From Myxococcales bacterium (GTDB lineage Bacteria; Myxococcota_C; UBA6777): 16,455 nucleotides of DNA. A program made the translations under genes and the position numbers. This document shows, one piece after another, positions 17 to 15,147 of this stretch. The DNA lies in contig JALTMC010000330.1 of assembly GCA_027005175.1 (NCBI GenBank), forward strand, positions 2,664 through 19,118, written 5' to 3'. Below the pieces are notes generated by a model. That model saw only the letters and a list, made by a program, of their open reading frames with translations. It ran no database searches and was not told the origin of the DNA. Position 1 is the stretch's first letter; every line of letters begins with the position of its first letter.

Positions 17-1828
17 TTAGCTCTGGTTTAAGCGACCACCGAGGTCTTCAGCTTTGCGGGTTTTGCGGGGTACATTTTCGAGGCGGAGTACGCCACGAGG
101 GCAGACTTCGGAGCAGAGGCCGCAGCCGACACAAGAGGCGCGGGTGAAGTTCTGGTTGGATTGTGCGTAGTTGCGGACGTCGATACCCATTTCGCAATAT
201 TTGGAGCAAAGACCGCAGGAGATACACATGTCGCGCTTGACGCGAATACGGAATCGTCCAAGCTTTTGGAGGAGTCCCAGTAGGGCGGCCATGGGGCAGG
301 CGAATCGACACCAAACGCGCGTACCACCGAGAGGATAGAGTCCAACACCTACAACCCCGGAGAGGACGGCAGAGACACCCAACCCGTAGAGTCCTCGGGT
401 TTCCATGGCGATCTGTCCGAGTGGTTTGTTGCCTGAATACCATGCCAGCGCAGTGATGATCGTCATTAGGATGGTGATGACCAGTATAGCGTTGATAGAG
501 AACTTTTCGAAGAGCCAGGCTTTGCTCGACTTGTTGGACAGGTGACGCCAGGGCTCACCAAAGGTATTCGCCAGACCACCACATCCACAAACCCAAGAGC
601 AGTACCAGCGTTTGCCAAATACAATCCCTGCAAGGGGAGCGAGGAAGAGTCCCGCTACAAAGCTGTAGACAATGAAGGGAACAGGAAGTCCGCTTTTGAT
701 CTGGTATGCAATGGTGGAAGGATAGAAGTAGTCAACCTTCAGGGGCCAGATATAGCTGAAGTAGTAGTCCGGTCGTTGGAACAATTTGAGGATCCAGGGG
801 ATCGAAAATGCGATTGTGGCCTGAACAAACATCACAACTGTGGTGCGGATCACCTGATACTTATTGTGCCAGTATTTCCAGATCATATAGGAGCCGCCTG
901 AGGTAATACAGACAGTATAGAGCAGCCCATAAAATACCCACTTGCTGTCGAGGCCCATGGAGAGGGCGAGTTGGCGGAAAGGATCTTGCTTGGCATGCAA
1001 AGCACCCATCAACGTAGGCATCGCGTGAACGGCTGCGACCAAGGTAAAGAAGAAACTCAGCAGCATCACCATTCCGATGAATCGATGGGGGTTTTCGGCG
1101 TGCTCTTTTTTCTTAACCATCACAGTCACACCGCCCAAACTCACAAGCAGCATCCCACCAAAACCAGCCAGAAACCAAAGGAGCAGTTTGAGTCCGGTGC
1201 CTACTCCATAAAATAGAGAGGTCGATGGAGGTGATTTCCCCGGCATGGCAAGAATGAGATAGGTTGATAAAAATAACACCACCAAAGTGGAAGTTAGTAG
1301 TATGGCTAACAATCCAAGGACTTTGAGAGGCTGTCCTTTCTCCTTGCGGTGAGCAAACATAGAGGCCATGCCAAACGCTAAGATGACACCATAGATAGCT
1401 TGAAATATAGCATTTCCTGTAGCTCCCCACTCTAACTGACTTAGGGATTGGGCTAAGCCTGTTTCACCCAACATTTTCATCAGGGCCGGTGTGAAGTAAA
1501 CAAAGGTTGCCAACAAAAGGGTGGCGACCAAGCCGATAGCTGTCTTTGTCATCTGTGCTTTGCGGACAGTCTCGGCTTCTTGTGAGTCAGACCACAGCAT
1601 ATATCCGCCGACCCCAACGATGCCTGCAAAAAGAATATAAAAAATACCACTTTCTGTCGCACTCCACTGGCCTTGGCCCAGACGATGTCCAAAATACAAG
1701 ACGATATAAAATAAAAGAATCGCTGCAGAAAGAAGCCAGGCTGTTATCCCGCGATGAGTCACATCGTGGTGTAACCAGCCTATGGCAGTTTGTCGTCGCA
1801 TGATATGTACTCTCTCTTTATCGTTCAA
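17..1828 (-). CDS. Polytopic membrane polyferredoxin. The C-terminal half is NapH/MauN/CcoG-like, with two membrane CxxxC(P) motifs and two CxxCxxCxxxC(P) 4Fe-4S ferredoxin motifs. The N-terminal half is an extra multi-helix membrane domain.
   Basis: 603-aa ORF with many hydrophobic helices. Motifs seen: WYCSWVCGCGG and VWCRFACP (NapH/FixG-type CxxxCP), then CISCGLCSKYC and CVGCGLCSEVCP (ferredoxin-type 4Fe-4S). Family assignment is from motif recognition only. Confidence 0.6.
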   Translation of the reverse strand: MNDKERVHIMRRQTAIGWLHHDVTHRGITAWLLSAAILLFYIVLYFGHRLGQGQWSATESGIFYILFAGIVGVGGYMLWSDSQEAETVRKAQMTKTAIGLVATLLLATFVYFTPALMKMLGETGLAQSLSQLEWGATGNAIFQAIYGVILAFGMASMFAHRKEKGQPLKVLGLLAILLTSTLVVLFLSTYLILAMPGKSPPSTSLFYGVGTGLKLLLWFLAGFGGMLLVSLGGVTVMVKKKEHAENPHRFIGMVMLLSFFFTLVAAVHAMPTLMGALHAKQDPFRQLALSMGLDSKWVFYGLLYTVCITSGGSYMIWKYWHNKYQVIRTTVVMFVQATIAFSIPWILKLFQRPDYYFSYIWPLKVDYFYPSTIAYQIKSGLPVPFIVYSFVAGLFLAPLAGIVFGKRWYCSWVCGCGGLANTFGEPWRHLSNKSSKAWLFEKFSINAILVITILMTIITALAWYSGNKPLGQIAMETRGLYGLGVSAVLSGVVGVGLYPLGGTRVWCRFACPMAALLGLLQKLGRFRIRVKRDMCISCGLCSKYCEMGIDVRNYAQSNQNFTRASCVGCGLCSEVCPRGVLRLENVPRKTRKAEDLGGRLNQS

Positions 1829-1953
1829 GCGGTCGGTGACCCGGTTTTGTGTGCAAGCGGTCAGTGACTCGGTTTTGTGTGCAAGCGGTCAGTGACCCGG
1901 TTTAAGCGGTCGGTGACCCGGTTTTGTGTGCAAGCGGTCGGTGACTCGGTTTT
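1826..1953. repeat. Tandem array of about 4.5 copies of a 28-bp unit (consensus caagcggtc[a/g]gtgac[c/t]cggttttgtgtg). It sits immediately upstream of the polyferredoxin start on the minus strand.
   Basis: Direct reading: near-identical units follow head-to-tail with one or two substitutions. Copy 3 is truncated (lacks tgtgtg) and the last copy is truncated. There are no unique spacers between units. Confidence 0.8.
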
Positions 1954-1992: not shown

Positions 1993-3279
1993 TCATCGAA
2001 CCAGGGGGATCTCGGTGGTTTGCATGTTGTCGAGTTTTGCGCGGCCAAATTCGACGTCGTATTGGGCTTTGTGGAGGTTTTCCAAGACATATTGTGGTGA
2101 TCTTGCTTCCAATACCCAGTCTTCCAATACTTCGTGATCCCATCGGGACCCAAGCATATTGAATCCAAGAACCTTGGTACCATCATGGGCAATTCGCTGT
2201 GATATCGGTTGTCCTGGCATCTTGCGATAAATCGTAGGGGAGCCTTCAGGAAGTGTTTGGACAGCTCCCACTGTGGTATATTCAATCTCAAAAAACTTGG
2301 AGCTGTTGAAGAAAAGAGGAGGCTTGTATACTTCGCGTTGCCCGACGATGTTGCGTGCTACGTGAGCCCCCTGTCGTTTGGCGGAGTACCAGATCAACTC
2401 TGTGGTGGGGCGTTCTTGTCCGGGGAAATGGATCTCTGCACAGTCTCCGGCTGCGTAGACATTTTTTTGCGGCGTTTCGAGATACTCATTAACCACAATC
2501 CCCCGACCTAACTCGGGAGGTTGGGAGAAGTCTTTGAGTCGGTCGATGTTGGGGCGTACGCCTGCTGCGATTCCGAGCATCTGACACTCGATAACGTTGC
2601 CTTTGTTGGTATGGACTGCTTTGACACGGCCATTGTCATCTACTTCCACACGAGTCATTTCTTCAGTCAGGCGGACATCGACACCATGGTGTCTCATCTC
2701 TGCTGTAACAAAAGTAGCTTCTTCTTCACCCAGTGCCATGGGCCAATAATAGGATTCTCGAACCAGGAAGGTGACTTTGACACCGTGATGTCTCAGGCAC
2801 TCGACCAGCTCAATGCCAATCAGCCCGCCTCCGATTACAACAGCATGTTGTGTGCTGGGTGTGAGGCGTTCACATTGTTCCAGGTCTTGCATGGATACAA
2901 AGTGAACTTTGCCTTCTTTCACTTGATCCATACCGTCCCAGGGGAACATATTGGGCTTGGCTCCTACAGCATAGACAAGCTTGTCGTAGGGAATGCGTTC
3001 GCCATTGTCGAGCACGACTTGTTGGGTTTGCGTGTTGCAATCGACCATCCAGCCCTTGATGAGCTTGATATCTTGTCGAGCGTACTCTGAGCGTTCATAG
3101 GGCTCCAGATCTCGTCGTGTGAGTTTATCCATATAAGCGTACATCAACGCTGTACGGGAAAAAAAGTATTCGGTCTCCCCGCTGAGTACTGTAATGGATG
3201 CATCCTTGTCGTGTTTTCTGACTGTCATAGCGCAGGTGATGCCCGCTACACCATTTCCGATGATAACAACCCTCATCAA
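1993..3279 (-). CDS. FAD-dependent pyridine nucleotide-disulfide oxidoreductase family protein (rubredoxin/ferredoxin-reductase or NADH-oxidase-like).
   Basis: 428 aa. N-terminal VIIGNGVAG dinucleotide-binding motif at residues 5-13. A second Rossmann motif, VVIGGGLIGIE, lies mid-protein. The AAGDCAE motif is typical of the family. The specific substrate is not assignable. Confidence 0.8.
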   Translation of the reverse strand: MMRVVIIGNGVAGITCAMTVRKHDKDASITVLSGETEYFFSRTALMYAYMDKLTRRDLEPYERSEYARQDIKLIKGWMVDCNTQTQQVVLDNGERIPYDKLVYAVGAKPNMFPWDGMDQVKEGKVHFVSMQDLEQCERLTPSTQHAVVIGGGLIGIELVECLRHHGVKVTFLVRESYYWPMALGEEEATFVTAEMRHHGVDVRLTEEMTRVEVDDNGRVKAVHTNKGNVIECQMLGIAAGVRPNIDRLKDFSQPPELGRGIVVNEYLETPQKNVYAAGDCAEIHFPGQERPTTELIWYSAKRQGAHVARNIVGQREVYKPPLFFNSSKFFEIEYTTVGAVQTLPEGSPTIYRKMPGQPISQRIAHDGTKVLGFNMLGSRWDHEVLEDWVLEARSPQYVLENLHKAQYDVEFGRAKLDNMQTTEIPLVR

Positions 3280-3543
3280 ATACTCTCCTCCCTTGTTTGT
3301 TTTCTGCGTTTTAAAGAAACTTTGTTTCGATTGACCCTATACATACGAACAAACGATGCTTCTAGTGTGAGGTCGCTGTGATGCAAATTCTGCTACACTT
3401 GAATTTAACTGTATGATGTTTTCTATGGGCTCCCAGCAGCTTCTGAAAGACATGGACATCGCGAAATTACCTGTGAGTTCACCGTTCTGGTTGTTGGAGC
3501 AAGCTGGAATATTTCGGCAACGATGCGGTCTCTTTGTGAAAAC

Positions 3544-3658
3544 AAGGAACAAACAAGCTCCTTCTTAAGAAACAAACAAGTTTCTTCTTAAGGAACAAGC
3601 AAGTTTCTTCTTAAGGAACAAGCAAGTTTCTTCTTAAGGAACAAGCAAGCTCCTTCTT
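3544..3658. repeat. Five head-to-tail copies of a 23-bp unit (aaggaacaagcaagtttcttctt). Each unit has internal dyad symmetry (gaaac...gtttc), and each junction forms ttcttaaggaa around a CTTAAG core.
   Basis: Direct reading. Units 3 and 4 are identical. Units 1 and 5 carry the same variant (ctcc). Unit 2 is a perfect GAAAC-aaacaa-GTTTC palindrome. The array lies about 265-380 bp upstream of the oxidoreductase start on the minus strand. Confidence 0.8.
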
Positions 3659-4082
3659 GCGGTCCTTTTACAGTGTTTGAGTAAAAATACGCTATGGTTT
3701 GGATAGGATGATGGAAATAAAATGGACATGACCATGACCAGGAATGGCCTCCTTTGGTGTGCAAGTTTGCTTCTTTCTCTCGTGGGGCTAAAACCACCGA
3801 CTCTGAGGAAGAAAAACCCGACTGAAGTCGGCTCAGCTCTTTGTTTTTCCCTGTAGGGTAAGTGGTTTTGAGTGCTCTTTTGTATACTTCTCACCCTTAG
3901 AGTAGGACTGCAAGCTCCACGAAAATACAGGAGGTTCCGCTAGAAGCGACGATTGATGAACTTGAATATCTCAAATCGCACTCACAAGCACGCGGTTTTC
4001 TCCTGAATGTATTCGTTCAACTTGTTGGGTTGCCATTTCTACGTCCATTTCTTTTACTTCGTGACTCACACTCTGCTGTGCT

Positions 4083-4465: not shown

Positions 4466-4578
4466 CTTGCTACTTGAAGTTGAAAATACATCTTAAGATC
4501 CCGCTTCGGACAAGTGGTCGTCGTTGTCTCGAAGCGAGACAACTTGCTACTTGAAGTTGAAACTACATCTTAAGATCC
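4466..4578. repeat. Two copies of a 36-bp direct repeat (cttgctacttgaagttgaaa[a/c]tacatcttaagatcc, 35/36 identical) at 4466-4501 and 4543-4578. They flank a perfect 9-bp-stem hairpin (gttgtctcg-aag-cgagacaac, about 4523-4543).
   Basis: Direct reading. The proximal copy contains the ribosome-binding site of the Cpn10-like gene. No U-tract follows the hairpin. Confidence 0.8.
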
Positions 4579-4591
4579 GGGGTCCATCCGG

Positions 4592-5350
4592 TTAGGCGTT
4601 GGCACTTTTGATAATTCCGATGAAGTCTTCTGCTTTGAGGGCTGCTCCGCCGACAAGGGCACCGTCGATGTTCTTTTGGGAGAGCAGTTCTCTGCTGTTC
4701 TTGGGCTTGACACTGCCACCATAGAGGATTCGTACAGCGTCTGCGACATCGGGGGAAAAGAGCTGAAAGAGGTGTGCACGGATAAAGGCGTGAGCTTCTT
4801 CTGCTTGTGTGGGAGTGGCGGTTTTGCCTGTTCCAATCGCCCATACAGGTTCGTATGCGATGATAAGCTCGGAGCCTTCTTCGTGAGTGAGGCCTGTGAG
4901 GCCCTGAAGGATCTGTTGTTCAATGACTCTGACAAAGTCGCCGCGTTCACGTTCTTCCAGGGTCTCTCCAAAACACACGATGGGGATCAGATTGTGTTGG
5001 AAGGCTGCCTTGATTTTCTTGTTGACGATCTCATTGGTTTCACCGAAGTATTTGCGACGTTCGGAGTGGCCGATAAGGATATAATCTGCGCCTGCATCTT
5101 TGAGGAAGGAGGGGGAGATCTCTCCAGTGAAAGCACCACTCTCTTCCCAATGCATATTTTGCCCTGCGACGCTGATATAGGATTTTGCACAAAATTCAAC
5201 GACAGTATCGAGCGCTGTAAAGGGTGGGGCGACAATCACATCCACTTCACCAGGCCAGGTGAGTCCATAGTGGAGACCTTGAACAAGCTCCAAAGCCTGC
5301 CTCTTGTGCATGTTCATCTTCCAGTTGCCAGCAATCACCGGAGTTCTCAT
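4592..5350 (-). CDS. tpiA: Triosephosphate isomerase.
   Basis: Hallmark TIM motifs: VIAGNWKMN near the N-terminus, GHSERR, and AYEPVWAIGTGKTAT. I chose the internal ATG at 5350 (MRTPVIAGNWKMN), preceded by a ggggag RBS. The ORF-track start at 5419 adds a non-conserved 23-aa extension. Confidence 0.9.
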   Translation of the reverse strand: MRTPVIAGNWKMNMHKRQALELVQGLHYGLTWPGEVDVIVAPPFTALDTVVEFCAKSYISVAGQNMHWEESGAFTGEISPSFLKDAGADYILIGHSERRKYFGETNEIVNKKIKAAFQHNLIPIVCFGETLEERERGDFVRVIEQQILQGLTGLTHEEGSELIIAYEPVWAIGTGKTATPTQAEEAHAFIRAHLFQLFSPDVADAVRILYGGSVKPKNSRELLSQKNIDGALVGGAALKAEDFIGIIKSANA

Positions 5351-5538
5351 CTCTCGCTCCCCTGTCAATCCAATACCTGAACAAAGAAAAAAGGGGCATA
5401 CGATCATCCATAAGGTCAAAACAAAGAGAAACTTATCATGCCCAATTGATACATTGTGAGTTTAGCAGAAAAATGGCAACAAGCCCAAAAACTACAGGTT
5501 CGGAAGGTGCATGATGATCTCCATCCTACTTTGCAAAC

Positions 5539-5585
5539 CATGCTCAGCGAGCATGTCCTCAGCGAGCGACTCCGTGAGCGACTCG
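5539..5585. promoter_or_regulatory. Perfect 7-bp inverted repeat catgctc-agc-gagcatg. It is followed by reiterated gagcgactc motifs, about 190 nt upstream of tpiA.
   Basis: Direct reading of the symmetry. A regulatory role is inference only. Confidence 0.25.
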
Positions 5586-5698
5586 TTGTGTAGGTTTGTA
5601 AGATCTTTTTGCAATCGATTGCTGCGATGACAAAGAGATTAAAAGTGAGATGGACTCCAGCCCGTCTGATGGAACCAAAAAGGGCCAAGTTCTTGCGA

Positions 5699-5814
5699 CG
5701 ACTTCGTTGCGGTAGCTGAGAAGAGAGCGTCTTGGGTCTTTCAGGAAACAGCACAGCCGTCAGCATATGACTTCGTTGCGGTAGCTGAGAAGAGAGTGTC
5801 TTGGGATTTTCAGG
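5699..5814. repeat. Two copies of a 47-bp direct repeat (gacttcgttgcggtagctgagaagagag[c/t]gtcttggg...ttcagga), period about 69 bp. The second copy abuts or overlaps the aldolase stop codon.
   Basis: Direct reading, about 44/47 identity. The repeated PKTLSSQLPQRS in the 5416..5934 shadow ORF is the same DNA repeat translated. Confidence 0.75.
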
Positions 5815-6703
5815 AGTTTCCCTGAAAGATCTTCTTGACCTCATCAAGGACAAGTTCTTCGAGTCGTGTTGGGTCGATGGGGACAGAGGCTTCGGTCCCT
5901 GCTGCTTTTGGTGACGGAGGCTGTGTTGTGTCAACAGATTTGGTCTCTTGTTTCTGTGTTTTGGCTTGTTGGTGGAGTTCTTCTTTCCACTGTTGGCGTG
6001 CTTCCTTTTCTCGCAGAGCTTTTTCTTGGAGGGCTGCTATTTTCTCTTGTCGGTTTTGGGGTCCTAAGCCGATGGATGCACGTTTTTTGAGTAGAGTGTC
6101 ACGATGTTCTTGAGCTAGGGTCATTGGCTGCCCCATTTGCATGGCATAATATTCGATTTTGGCGAGATGCTCGACAAGCTCGAGGCGTAGCCATGCTTGT
6201 TCAAGGTCATCTCCAATGGCTAAGATCCCATTGCCTGTCATCATGATGACATCGGCGATTTGCAATCCATCATGGATCAGTTTGTCATTCTCGGGAGCGC
6301 CAGGCATTGCAAAAGGGGTGACAGGAATACAGTCACCAATGGATACGATAGCTTCAGGGAGTGCTGGATATATTGGCTGGTTGACAAGGCCTCGTGCGGT
6401 GACAAAGGGGGGGTGGGCGTGGACCACAGCGTTGGCATCGGGTCTTGCACGGTAGGCGGAGAGGTGGAGCTTGATCTCCGAGAAAGGTCTGCCGATCCCC
6501 TCGATCTTTTTGCCCTCCATATCGAGGGTGATGACCATCTCTGGCTTGATGGAAGCTTTGCTCTCGGAGGTTGGGGTGGCGAGCAGCACATCGTCGAGGC
6601 GAGCGGATATATTGCCATCGTGATTGGCGGTGAAACCTTTATGGTCTAGTTTTTGAGAGATCTCTGCAATCAGGTTGCTGAGATAACTTCGCCTTGAACC
6701 CAT
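5810..6703 (-). CDS. Class II aldolase/adducin-family enzyme (FucA-like: fuculose/rhamnulose-1-phosphate or 5-deoxyribulose-1-phosphate aldolase type). It has a C-terminal Lys/Glu/Gln-rich linker and a terminal amphipathic helix that resembles a BMC encapsulation peptide.
   Basis: YRARPDANAVVHAHPPFVTA matches the FucA metal-binding region (YQSRPDANAVVHNHAVHCTA). The catalytic domain is about 210 aa. A roughly 85-aa tail then follows, ending PIDPTRLEELVLDEVKKIFQGNS (amphipathic, EP-like). Confidence 0.85.
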   Translation of the reverse strand: MGSRRSYLSNLIAEISQKLDHKGFTANHDGNISARLDDVLLATPTSESKASIKPEMVITLDMEGKKIEGIGRPFSEIKLHLSAYRARPDANAVVHAHPPFVTARGLVNQPIYPALPEAIVSIGDCIPVTPFAMPGAPENDKLIHDGLQIADVIMMTGNGILAIGDDLEQAWLRLELVEHLAKIEYYAMQMGQPMTLAQEHRDTLLKKRASIGLGPQNRQEKIAALQEKALREKEARQQWKEELHQQAKTQKQETKSVDTTQPPSPKAAGTEASVPIDPTRLEELVLDEVKKIFQGNS

Positions 6704-13296: not shown

Positions 13297-13539
13297 ATAT
13301 ACGTGTCCTCTTTCTTGAATTGTGGGACGACCGTTTGGGTAATCGGCCGGAACTACTGTTCCGAATCATCGGTGGTATTCTCAGGTGAGCCGCTAACAAA
13401 GAAGGGCAAACCCTAGCACAGCAAATCAGGAGTGTCAAGAACTACAGACGATTCTTTTTTTCTCTTTTTCTCCTGTCAATACCGGTGCTTTTGGCCTTCT
13501 CTCAAAGCTCACTTCACATCTCGTGAACAGAGCAAAGAT

Positions 13540-13553: not shown

Positions 13554-13803
13554 CCTTGCCCCCTTTGCTAGTTTGGCCCCTTCACACCATTCGGACGTAG
13601 ACGTCGGCCGCTTGAACCGAGTCGTTGGCCGCTTGAACATAGGAACAGCGAGAAAACAACTTGAACATTTCGAACGGCAATCGCCGGAACCTTCGGGATT
13701 TACAATTCCCACATATGTTCAACTTCTTTGGTCGCCATTCCTAGAATGCAGAACCAGGTATTTGTTTCTCATTGAATTGAAAATGAGGTTGGAGTAGGTT
13801 TAT

Positions 13804-15147
13804 ATGCCGCATTTCTCATCGTCTTTTTCGGCAAAAGATATCGTGGAGAAGGTCCGACAGGCAGGCATTGTCGGTGCGGGAGGTGGAGGCTTTCCTGCGC
13901 ATGTCAAGCTCGATGCAAGTGTAGACTTTTTTATTGCCAACGCTGCGGAGTGTGAGCCTTTGCTGTGCAAGGATCAGCAGCTTATGGAGCTGCATGCACA
14001 ACGCATGGTGCATGGACTTCGTCTTGGGATGAAAGCCACTGGGGCGTCTCGTGGCATCGTCGCGATCAAGAAGAAGTACAAAAGAGCGATAGCCCAACTC
14101 GAAAAGTACGTGAGTGGGAACATCGACTTCTACCTCTACGACAACTTCTACCCTGCTGGAGATGAGTTTATCATCGTATATGATGTGTTGGGACGCTTGA
14201 TTCCACCAGGAGGGATACCTCTTGATGTGGGTTGTGTTGTCAACAATGTCGAAACACTGATCAATATCTCTTGTGCCATGGAGGATGTTCCTGTGACACA
14301 TTCCGCGCTGACGATCGCGGGTGCTGTTCATGAGCCTCTCTCTGTTGTGGCACCTCTTGGAACTTCTCTGCGAGAGCTTCTCGCTTTGGCGGGAGGGGCG
14401 ACTGTGGAGGACCCGGTTTTTCTCGATGGTGGTGCGATGATGGGGAAAGCTCTGGATGATCTGGATGCTCCTGTGACCAAGACATCAGCAGGTTATATCG
14501 TGATCCCCAGAGAACACCATCTCTATCGTCGCAAAACACGAAGCGATGAGGCCAATGTTCACATCTCTCGCTCTGCTTGTGACCAGTGTAGCTATTGTAC
14601 GGAACTGTGTCCTCGTTATCTTCTTGGTTATGCTATCGAACCACATGCGGTGATGCGTTCGGTTGGTTTTGAGGGGGACAAAGAAGCTCATTGGGCAAGA
14701 CTTGGCCTGTTGTGTTGTGAGTGCGGTATCTGCGACTTGTATGCCTGCCCTGAAGACCTGCCTGTGAAAGACATGCAGATCCGTTCCAAAGCCATCTGGA
14801 ATGCACGTGGATGGCCCAAAGAGCACCTCATTGGCTTGGACAGAGTTCATCCCATGCGAGACAGTCGTCGTGTGCCTATCCCACGATTGATTCAACGCTT
14901 AGGACTGACAGACTGGGATGTTACCGCTCCAATGACAACCAAGGTTCTGGAGCCGATGAATGTACAGTTGATGCTGAAACAACACGCTGGTGCTCCTGCG
15001 GTACCGATTGTTGGGGAGGGGGAGGTTGTGAAAGTCGGCCAACTTGTCGCGGCGATTCCCGATGGACAACTCGGTGCCAACATTCATGCAAGTATCGATG
15101 GATATGTAGCCCGTATCGATGACAACAGTATCTGGTTGACGAGGTAA
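13804..15147 (+). CDS. PduS-like (RnfC/Nqo1-like) Fe-S flavoprotein with canonical motifs.
   Basis: GIVGAGGGGFPAHVKL glycine-rich FMN/NADH motif. AAECEPLL. Two Fe-S motifs: CDQCSYCTELCP and CCECGICDLYACP. 447 aa. Confidence 0.85.
   Translation: MPHFSSSFSAKDIVEKVRQAGIVGAGGGGFPAHVKLDASVDFFIANAAECEPLLCKDQQLMELHAQRMVHGLRLGMKATGASRGIVAIKKKYKRAIAQLEKYVSGNIDFYLYDNFYPAGDEFIIVYDVLGRLIPPGGIPLDVGCVVNNVETLINISCAMEDVPVTHSALTIAGAVHEPLSVVAPLGTSLRELLALAGGATVEDPVFLDGGAMMGKALDDLDAPVTKTSAGYIVIPREHHLYRRKTRSDEANVHISRSACDQCSYCTELCPRYLLGYAIEPHAVMRSVGFEGDKEAHWARLGLLCCECGICDLYACPEDLPVKDMQIRSKAIWNARGWPKEHLIGLDRVHPMRDSRRVPIPRLIQRLGLTDWDVTAPMTTKVLEPMNVQLMLKQHAGAPAVPIVGEGEVVKVGQLVAAIPDGQLGANIHASIDGYVARIDDNSIWLTR

Follow-up and report, generated by a model that had tools for sequence, protein, structure and literature searches.

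A 23-bp non-coding tandem array, possibly a young minisatellite, in an expanded spacer of a Myxococcota-like microcompartment locus

The locus and the spacer that holds the array

The DNA analysed in this study (hereafter, the window) is a stretch of 16,455 nucleotides. Pfam searches identified it as a bacterial microcompartment locus, in which shell genes for BMC-H, BMC-T and three EutN-type pentamer proteins are accompanied by enzyme genes for two PduS-like flavoproteins, an aldehyde dehydrogenase, a DeoC aldolase, a class II aldolase and a triosephosphate isomerase. The locus matches the HO/SPU-like loci of PMC8217296, and its closest named homologues were found in metagenome-assembled genomes labelled Deltaproteobacteria, Myxococcota or Bradymonadia. 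Directly after the shell and enzyme genes of the window lies a trio of genes on the minus strand, encoding a Cpn10-like protein, an FAD oxidoreductase and an Fe-S protein. The features of this region are collected in Table 1.

Table 1 Features of the minus-strand gene row and of the spacer that holds the array. Positions are those of the window.
Feature	Position	Strand	Evidence or remark
Tandem duplication, 69-bp unit	5700-5815		Starts at the aldolase stop codon
Tandem duplication, 77-bp unit	4466-4578		Between the isomerase and Cpn10-like genes
Cpn10-like gene	4454-4083 (stop 4085-4083)	-	
Gene-free spacer holding the array, 806 bp	3277..4082	-	From the Cpn10-like stop to the oxidoreductase ATG; ORF list, Pfam, codon usage
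Terminator-like hairpin CCGAC-TTCA-GTCGG, then GTTTTTCTTC	3811..3831	-	Consensus scan; hairpin 3831-3818 plus T run
Right copy of the short direct repeat bracketing the array, TGCGGTCCTTTT	3658..3669	+	First base is the array's last base; repeat search, flank alignment
Tandem array, 5 x 23 bp	3544..3658	.	TRF, repeat search, pattern search with shuffles, unit dissection
Array unit 1			AAGGAAC AAACAA GCTCCTT CTT
Array unit 2			AAGAAAC AAACAA GTTTCTT CTT
Array unit 3			AAGGAAC AAGCAA GTTTCTT CTT
Array unit 4			AAGGAAC AAGCAA GTTTCTT CTT (same sequence as unit 3)
Array unit 5			AAGGAAC AAGCAA GCTCCTT CTT
Left copy of the short direct repeat bracketing the array, TGCGGTCTCTTT	3524..3535	+	Repeat search, flank alignment
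Isolated dyad GAAAC-AAA-GTTTC, 3-nt centre	3316..3328	.	Resembles the unit arms; nhmmer E = 7.3, repeat search
Ribosome-binding site GGGAGGAG (3292-3285) and oxidoreductase ATG (3276-3274)	3274..3292	-	Read from the sequence
Pyr_redox_2 FAD oxidoreductase gene	ATG at 3276	-	427-aa product from this ATG matches a record exactly
Tandem array, 28/21-bp unit x 4.8	1823-1953		From the oxidoreductase stop to the Fe-S protein start; contains a palindrome
Fe-S protein gene, 594 aa	ATG at 1801	-	Polyferredoxin-type partner of the oxidoreductase

The original prediction placed a tandem array between the Cpn10-like gene and the oxidoreductase gene, upstream of the latter, in a gap of about 800 bp. This placement was confirmed, and the array was located 267-381 nt upstream of the oxidoreductase ATG. 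The G+C content of the spacer was 43-46%, compared with about 50% for the window. No spacer ORF had a Pfam match, and no tRNA or tmRNA gene was detected in the spacer. When Rfam 15 was searched, no family reached its gathering threshold; the best sub-threshold match was to a microRNA model, with 19 bits as against the 63 needed. The whole spacer showed no similarity to plasmids and phages, nor to 89 related loci (765 kb) when blastn and tblastx were used, the best translated match having an E value of 0.41.

A terminator-like hairpin was found in the spacer 160 bp ahead of the array in the direction of transcription. Its predicted RNA fold, flanks included, had a free energy of -11.8 kcal/mol. 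Terminator-like sites are weak evidence when taken alone, as five were found where shuffled sequences gave 3.2 +/- 1.8. If this hairpin works as a terminator, the oxidoreductase gene would need its own promoter or read-through. A sigma-70 scan gave no promoter in the spacer, and no sigma-54-like promoter was recognised when the spacer was read by eye. The isolated dyad listed in Table 1, 40 nt upstream of the oxidoreductase ATG, is not statistically significant, and its hairpin has -2.4 kcal/mol.

The array and its units

Tandem Repeats Finder (TRF) reported the array with a period of 23, 5.0 copies, 92% matches, no indels and a score of 181. The same 23-bp register, head to tail and with starts 23 bp apart, was reproduced by a second repeat search. 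When the consensus 23-mer was searched with up to three mismatches, exactly the five array copies were matched, and none of 200 dinucleotide shuffles contained any match. The predicted array of five 23-bp units is therefore present, far above chance.

Each unit consists of a 7-bp arm (AAGRAAC), a 6-nt centre (AARCAA), a second 7-bp arm (GYTYCTT) and a 3-nt linker (CTT). Four positions vary among the five units, and all of the changes are transitions. It had been expected that the two outer units share one variant and that the array is accordingly symmetric. Units 1 and 5 indeed have GCTCC in common, but they differ at position 10 (A and G, respectively); hence the symmetry is partial. Each unit had also been described as a GAAAC-n6-GTTTC dyad. 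Inverted arms were observed in all five units, but this literal form occurs in unit 2 only and the arms are really 7 bp long. Watson-Crick pairing of the arms is complete in unit 2 (7/7) and 6/7 in the other four, where the mismatch is G.T in units 3 and 4 and A.C in units 1 and 5. When the consensus unit was shuffled 20,000 times with its composition kept, 20% of the results had a dyad of 6/7 and 1.4% one of 7/7. The unit dyad is thus statistically weak, barely beyond chance.

A second dyad had been noted around CTTAAG at the unit junctions. CTTAAG is present at all four junctions; however, the 7-bp junction dyad GYTYCTT-CTT-AAGRAAC follows automatically from repeating a unit of 7 + 6 + 7 + 3, so that it is not an independent second feature. 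The last unit together with two flanking bases reads GCAAG-N6-CTTGC (3645-3660), which the consensus scan reported as terminator-like on both strands, with five pairs and a weak T run.

The array exists and is non-coding. Its period is not a multiple of 3, and stops occur in all six frames because the TAA of CTTAAG closes all three frames on both strands. The codon-usage score was negative for every spacer ORF, whereas 16 real genes scored +0.13 to +0.26. The units abut without spacers, and no cas genes were found among the Pfam matches of the window ORFs and of the 2-kb extension described below. The view of the original prediction that this is neither a coding repeat nor a CRISPR array accordingly holds.

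The locus is carried by a single organism and sample, SAMN12239307, from which all of the sequence was obtained as metagenome assemblies; the record name alone may point to a hydrothermal-vent study. An overlap of exactly 55 nt joins two ENA contigs of the same organism and sample, L001 and L007, and points to a k-mer of 55. The longest exact repeat within the array is 50 nt, close to this apparent k-mer; extra identical inner units could therefore be collapsed, and five copies may be a lower bound. The overlap, where L007 ends and L001 starts, corresponds to positions 3945-3999, about 290 bp from the array, and this break suggests a branch in the assembly graph (strain variant or repeat). The array is further bracketed by a short direct repeat (Table 1). 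Since the alignment of the left and right flanks was equalled by 24 of 1000 shuffles, this repeat is a weak sign, possibly a trace of how the segment arose.

Relatives, other copies and neighbouring spacers

The row of Cpn10-like, oxidoreductase and Fe-S protein genes was also found in relatives, in three lineages with 74-81% protein identity. The gap between the Cpn10-like and oxidoreductase genes was 331 bp in L002/L003 (oxidoreductase identity, 81%) and about 118 bp in both L088 (80%) and L004-L006 (74%). The spacer of the window, at 806 bp, is thus two to seven times longer than those of the three lineages (about 120-330 bp). No tandem array was detected in these gaps, and they had no nucleotide similarity to the gap of the window. 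Because the relatives' gaps contain neither the array nor alignable sequence, the array and most of the gap are considered to be lineage-specific. In a more distant relative, L089 (70%), the gap holds a zinc alcohol dehydrogenase gene (L089 positions 2806-3837) that overlaps the end of the Cpn10-like gene, which indicates that the content of the gap varies between lineages. We examined a decayed gene as the origin of the spacer and rejected it: tblastn gave no remnant of the L089 alcohol dehydrogenase, codon usage was non-coding and there was no Pfam match. Tandem arrays upstream of the oxidoreductase gene in two more distant genomes, L010 and L027, were also dismissed, as they encode TAAQ repeats and belong to a divergent lipoprotein gene.

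Other observations were made on the relatives. In L002 and L004 the trio, with an Fe-S protein of 600 aa, adjoins DeoC and aldehyde dehydrogenase genes but not shell genes, none of which occurs within 10 kb; a few genes further downstream, a sigma-54 activator is encoded. A 10-mer, GTAGCAGAAT, was found at 3387-3396 on the minus strand of the window, about 110 nt upstream of the oxidoreductase ATG. The same 10-mer occurs twice in tandem at 9828-9848 of L002, the 81%-identical relative, about 155-170 nt upstream of the orthologous ATG, where about 0.25 chance matches were expected. This 10-mer could be a conserved promoter or operator element.

Copies of the unit were then sought elsewhere. The degenerate 23-mer had no match in 185,579 species genomes (one genome per species, the source genome not being among them), in the JGI metagenomes or in IMG/VR, and a 30-mer with a free centre had none in the metagenome and viral collections. 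A profile built from the five units gave no sixth copy in the window extended by 2 kb from contig L001 (18.4 kb in total). Matches to the dyad alone numbered 10 outside the array, compared with 8.9 expected for the window; these candidate single sites, the palindromic one at 13437-13456 among them, are at chance level and were rejected. CTTAAG occurs six times in the window, four times in the array and twice in the spacer between the triosephosphate isomerase and Cpn10-like genes. A shared CTTAAG-centred operator was rejected as well: the count of six was reached by 16 of 200 shuffles, and the contexts have only 7 nt in common. No CTTAAG was present upstream of the Cpn10-like gene in the relatives.

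Three neighbouring spacers of the same minus-strand gene row carry tandem duplications of their own (Table 1). A pairwise comparison that comprised the 23-bp array, the 77-bp duplication and the 28/21-bp array revealed no similarity above shuffles. A relation between the flanks of the 23-bp array and the 28/21-bp array was considered on the grounds that GCGGTC is present in both, but the similarity was not significant. Elsewhere in the 89 fetched loci (765 kb, including L001 and L007 from the window's own organism), only two arrays were found whose period was 12 or more and not divisible by 3. The duplications in neighbouring spacers point to a lineage-specific tendency to local duplication, so that a mutational origin is favoured over four separate inventions.

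The neighbouring repeats have the following structures. The gap between the class II aldolase and isomerase genes (5351-5815, about 460 bp) contains no gene in the ENA calls and opens with the 69-bp duplication, whose 47-nt copies are 94% identical and include the aldolase stop codon; a 172-aa ORF across this gap had a non-coding codon score. The duplication at 4466-4578 comprises a 36-nt sequence and, 77 bp from it, a second copy with 97% identity; each contains the 10-bp palindrome ATCTTAAGAT (4490-4499 and 4567-4576), and between the copies is a hairpin with a perfect 8-bp stem, TTGTCTCG-CTT-CGAGACAA. The 28/21-bp array has the core motif GGTCRGTGAC, and its last unit supplies a -35-like hexamer, TTGAAC. 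Its sequence GRCCGCTTGMAC recurs at 13599-13638, where two copies of 21 bp stand in tandem about 165 nt before a PduS-like gene (ATG at 13804) and have the same orientation to the gene. Seven copies of GRCCGCTTGMAC were counted in the window, where 0.36 were expected, and none in the loci of the relatives. The 28/21-bp array may serve the microcompartment locus as a genuine operator or promoter element. Because its core recurs upstream of the PduS-like gene, some short arrays of this organism may be functional.

Explanations of the array and its likeness to known systems

We favour, with moderate confidence, the explanation that the array is a young, lineage-specific, non-coding minisatellite that was generated by slippage in a relaxed and expanded spacer. 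A 23-bp, A/T-rich and weakly hairpin-prone unit would have multiplied into head-to-tail copies through slippage during replication or through unequal exchange, at a site under little constraint in a spacer that had presumably lengthened to 806 bp in this lineage. Units 3 and 4, which are identical and lie inside the array, would be the most recent copies, and the outer units would have retained the older variant GCTCC. Sequence-specific function would not be needed for such an array; any effect would be indirect and in cis, for instance if the array altered how far the terminator-like hairpin lies from the start of the oxidoreductase and Fe-S protein gene pair, or the geometry of the DNA in between. 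The copy number may vary between strains.

Several findings are consistent with this explanation. The closest relatives found lack the array, no remnant of a former gene is visible in the spacer, the available sequence contains the unit nowhere else, and spacer DNA tends to be duplicated locally. The dyad is barely beyond chance and the hairpins are weak. Furthermore, units 3 and 4 are identical, the outer units have a variant in common and the differences are transitions only; identical inner and diverged outer units are typical of arrays that grow from within. We infer both the slippage origin and the lack of function from these features. Other findings argue in the opposite direction. The arm pair at positions 4/17 is G-C, A-T or G-T in different units, which could reflect selection that keeps the dyad. 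The core of the neighbouring 28/21-bp array is also present in two tandem copies upstream of another gene. Lastly, the position of the array, 267-381 nt before the start codon and 160 nt past the terminator-like hairpin, would suit an upstream regulatory site or a long leader. Functional readings of the array, as binding sites or as RNA hairpins, are less probable, and no test supported them.

The first of these functional readings is a reiterated protein-binding site. A dimeric protein would recognise either AAGRAAC-N6-GYTYCTT or the junction sequence TTCTTAAGRAA, bind all five units in a cooperative manner and regulate how the oxidoreductase and Fe-S protein genes are transcribed. We regard this as unlikely, although each unit does have 7-bp inverted arms with 6/7 or 7/7 Watson-Crick pairs, and the 23-bp spacing, about 2.2 helical turns, resembles that of iterons. 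The location 267-381 nt upstream of the ATG and past a terminator-like hairpin would also agree with it, as would the sigma-54 activator gene found a few genes downstream of the gene row in relatives. In addition, the recurrence of the 28-bp array of the window upstream of a second gene indicates that repeated upstream motifs exist in this organism. Against these points, the orthologous spacers of the three relatives do not contain even a single ancestral site, the window has no second site, and a dyad of this strength was attained by one fifth of the shuffled units. A check for a nearby regulator gene, which the original prediction had called for, gave none: Pfam searches of sizeable ORFs in the window and its 2-kb extension returned microcompartment, redox and sugar-phosphate enzymes only, with no DNA-binding, Rep or Par gene. 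Features of a replication origin were likewise missing. The DnaA box TTATCCACA does not occur in the window, and relaxed matches were found only at 5183 and 9018, none of them near the array. With the array missing from the relatives and no second site in the window, the proposal of an iteron-like array of DNA-binding sites gained no support.

It is quite unlikely that the array is a member of a REP/BIME-like or MIRU-like family of repeats dispersed over this genome, a family in which short palindromic units in tandem occupy the spacers of co-directional genes and may be spread by a transposase. The anatomy fits such a family, with palindromic units arranged in tandem in an intercistronic spacer and specific to the species. 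Moreover, GRCCGCTTGMAC occurs in tandem in two separate spacers of the window, in far more copies than expected, and in the independent assembly of this sample the contigs separate 290 bp from the array and share 55 nt, as is seen at repeats or strain variants. However, the 18.4 kb available contain no second copy of the 23-bp unit, and the searches of species genomes (among which the source genome was not present), JGI metagenomes and IMG/VR yielded none. The unit is without a GTAG head, known REPs are longer than 23 bp, and Pfam searches revealed no transposase gene in the window and 2 kb beyond.

A very unlikely explanation is an RNA element, in which the array is transcribed as part of a long leader or intercistronic stretch of mRNA and its row of hairpins affects stability, processing or translation. 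REP hairpins act on mRNA in this way in E. coli operons. The two flanking genes are on one strand and lie 118 bp apart in relatives, so that co-transcription is plausible, and the array folded better than shuffles on the sense (z = -2.5) and antisense (z = -2.0) strands. In addition, an 11-nt stretch of the array (3570-3580) is a perfect inverted match to 3292-3302, just 5' of the ribosome-binding site. Nevertheless, single-unit hairpins ranged from -1.1 to -8 kcal/mol, and the weak units were the inner ones on the sense strand, where two reach only -1.1 kcal/mol, and the outer ones on the antisense strand. All five stems were paired on neither strand. On both strands the minimum free energy (MFE) structure had a frequency below 0.005 and the centroid was unlike it; the array folded as DNA had z = -1.5, and the whole 601-nt leader (z = -0.1) was no better than shuffles. 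Pairing of the array with the region of the ribosome-binding site was rejected as a candidate: the duplex of -27.5 kcal/mol was equalled or beaten by 182 of 500 shuffles (-26.4 +/- 4.4), and it was no better than with other gene starts. There is no Rfam family match, and the terminator-like hairpin stands between the upstream gene and the array. The suggestion of a series of RNA hairpins therefore gained no support, the hairpins being weak and inconsistent between strands and the fold ensemble ill-defined.

A broader proposal takes the repeats of the four consecutive spacers (69-, 77-, 23- and 28/21-bp) together as lineage-specific cis-regulatory arrays. The 23-bp array would then be a cooperative operator or upstream activating array, at which a putative dimeric regulator sets expression of the oxidoreductase and polyferredoxin genes against that of the microcompartment genes. 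We see only a slim chance of this.

That short-read assembly created or distorted the array or its copy number is highly improbable, for although all available assemblies are metagenomic and the 50-nt internal repeat is near the apparent k-mer, the same five units with their flanks were obtained in two separate assemblies (the window's contig and L001), the 115-bp array is shorter than a typical read and the unit variants make most of it unique.

If the minisatellite explanation is correct, the array would be at most a potential marker for strain typing, and an example of spacer expansion by local duplication in one uncultured Myxococcota-like lineage. If the array were instead a binding site, it would provide a handle on the regulation of this HO/SPU-like microcompartment neighbourhood and of the conserved trio of Cpn10-like, oxidoreductase and Fe-S protein genes.

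The array was finally compared with known systems. Iterons comprise at least three direct repeats of 17-23 bp at regular spacing, a description that covers the five 23-bp units, and with plasmid origins such as those of R6K, RK2 and pPS10 the array has in common an uninterrupted series of five direct repeats, about 22-23 bp each, outside coding sequence. Each iteron is an asymmetric site to which Rep binds as a monomer, and beside iterons lie the rep gene, DnaA boxes and a region rich in A+T where the DNA unwinds. The present units, in contrast, are dyads in a chromosomal metabolic cluster that has no rep gene, unwinding region or DnaA boxes, and the size and number of units are the only features that the array shares with plasmid iterons. 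The sopC site of plasmid F consists of 12 units of 43 bp, each with a 7-bp inverted repeat, and is thus similar in that each tandem unit has its own inverted repeat with 7-bp arms. The array differs from it in unit length and sequence, in its location in a chromosomal operon-like gene row and in having no ParA/ParB-type genes nearby. The met boxes bound by MetJ, a ribbon-helix-helix repressor, are abutting palindromic units of 8 bp whose junctions form further dyads and which are conserved across a regulon. The array has the same abutting arrangement and could be coated cooperatively in the same manner, but its unit is 23 bp long and it has neither another site nor a repressor gene nearby.

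The REP and BIME elements of enterobacteria and pseudomonads resemble the array in being species-specific palindromic units that cluster in the spacers of co-directional genes, and as hairpins they can stabilise mRNA. A REP measures about 35-40 nt and has a conserved GTAG and a stable stem rich in G+C; each genome contains hundreds of copies, in alternating orientation. The stems of the array are, by comparison, A/U-rich and weak, and no other copies of its unit were found. REPINs are treated in PMC3116915.

The array most resembles intergenic VNTRs. As in minisatellites and VNTRs, its unit is within 10-100 bp and repeated head to tail with high identity in non-coding DNA, and it is not conserved at the orthologous site. 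The MIRU-VNTR loci of Mycobacterium tuberculosis also consist of units of tens of bp arranged head to tail in non-coding spacers between co-directional genes. MIRUs form a family of related sequences at dozens of loci, each unit measuring 46-101 bp, whereas one locus is known here. Like bacterial VNTR loci in general, the array is missing from the orthologous site of relatives and combines identical inner copies with diverged copies at the edges.
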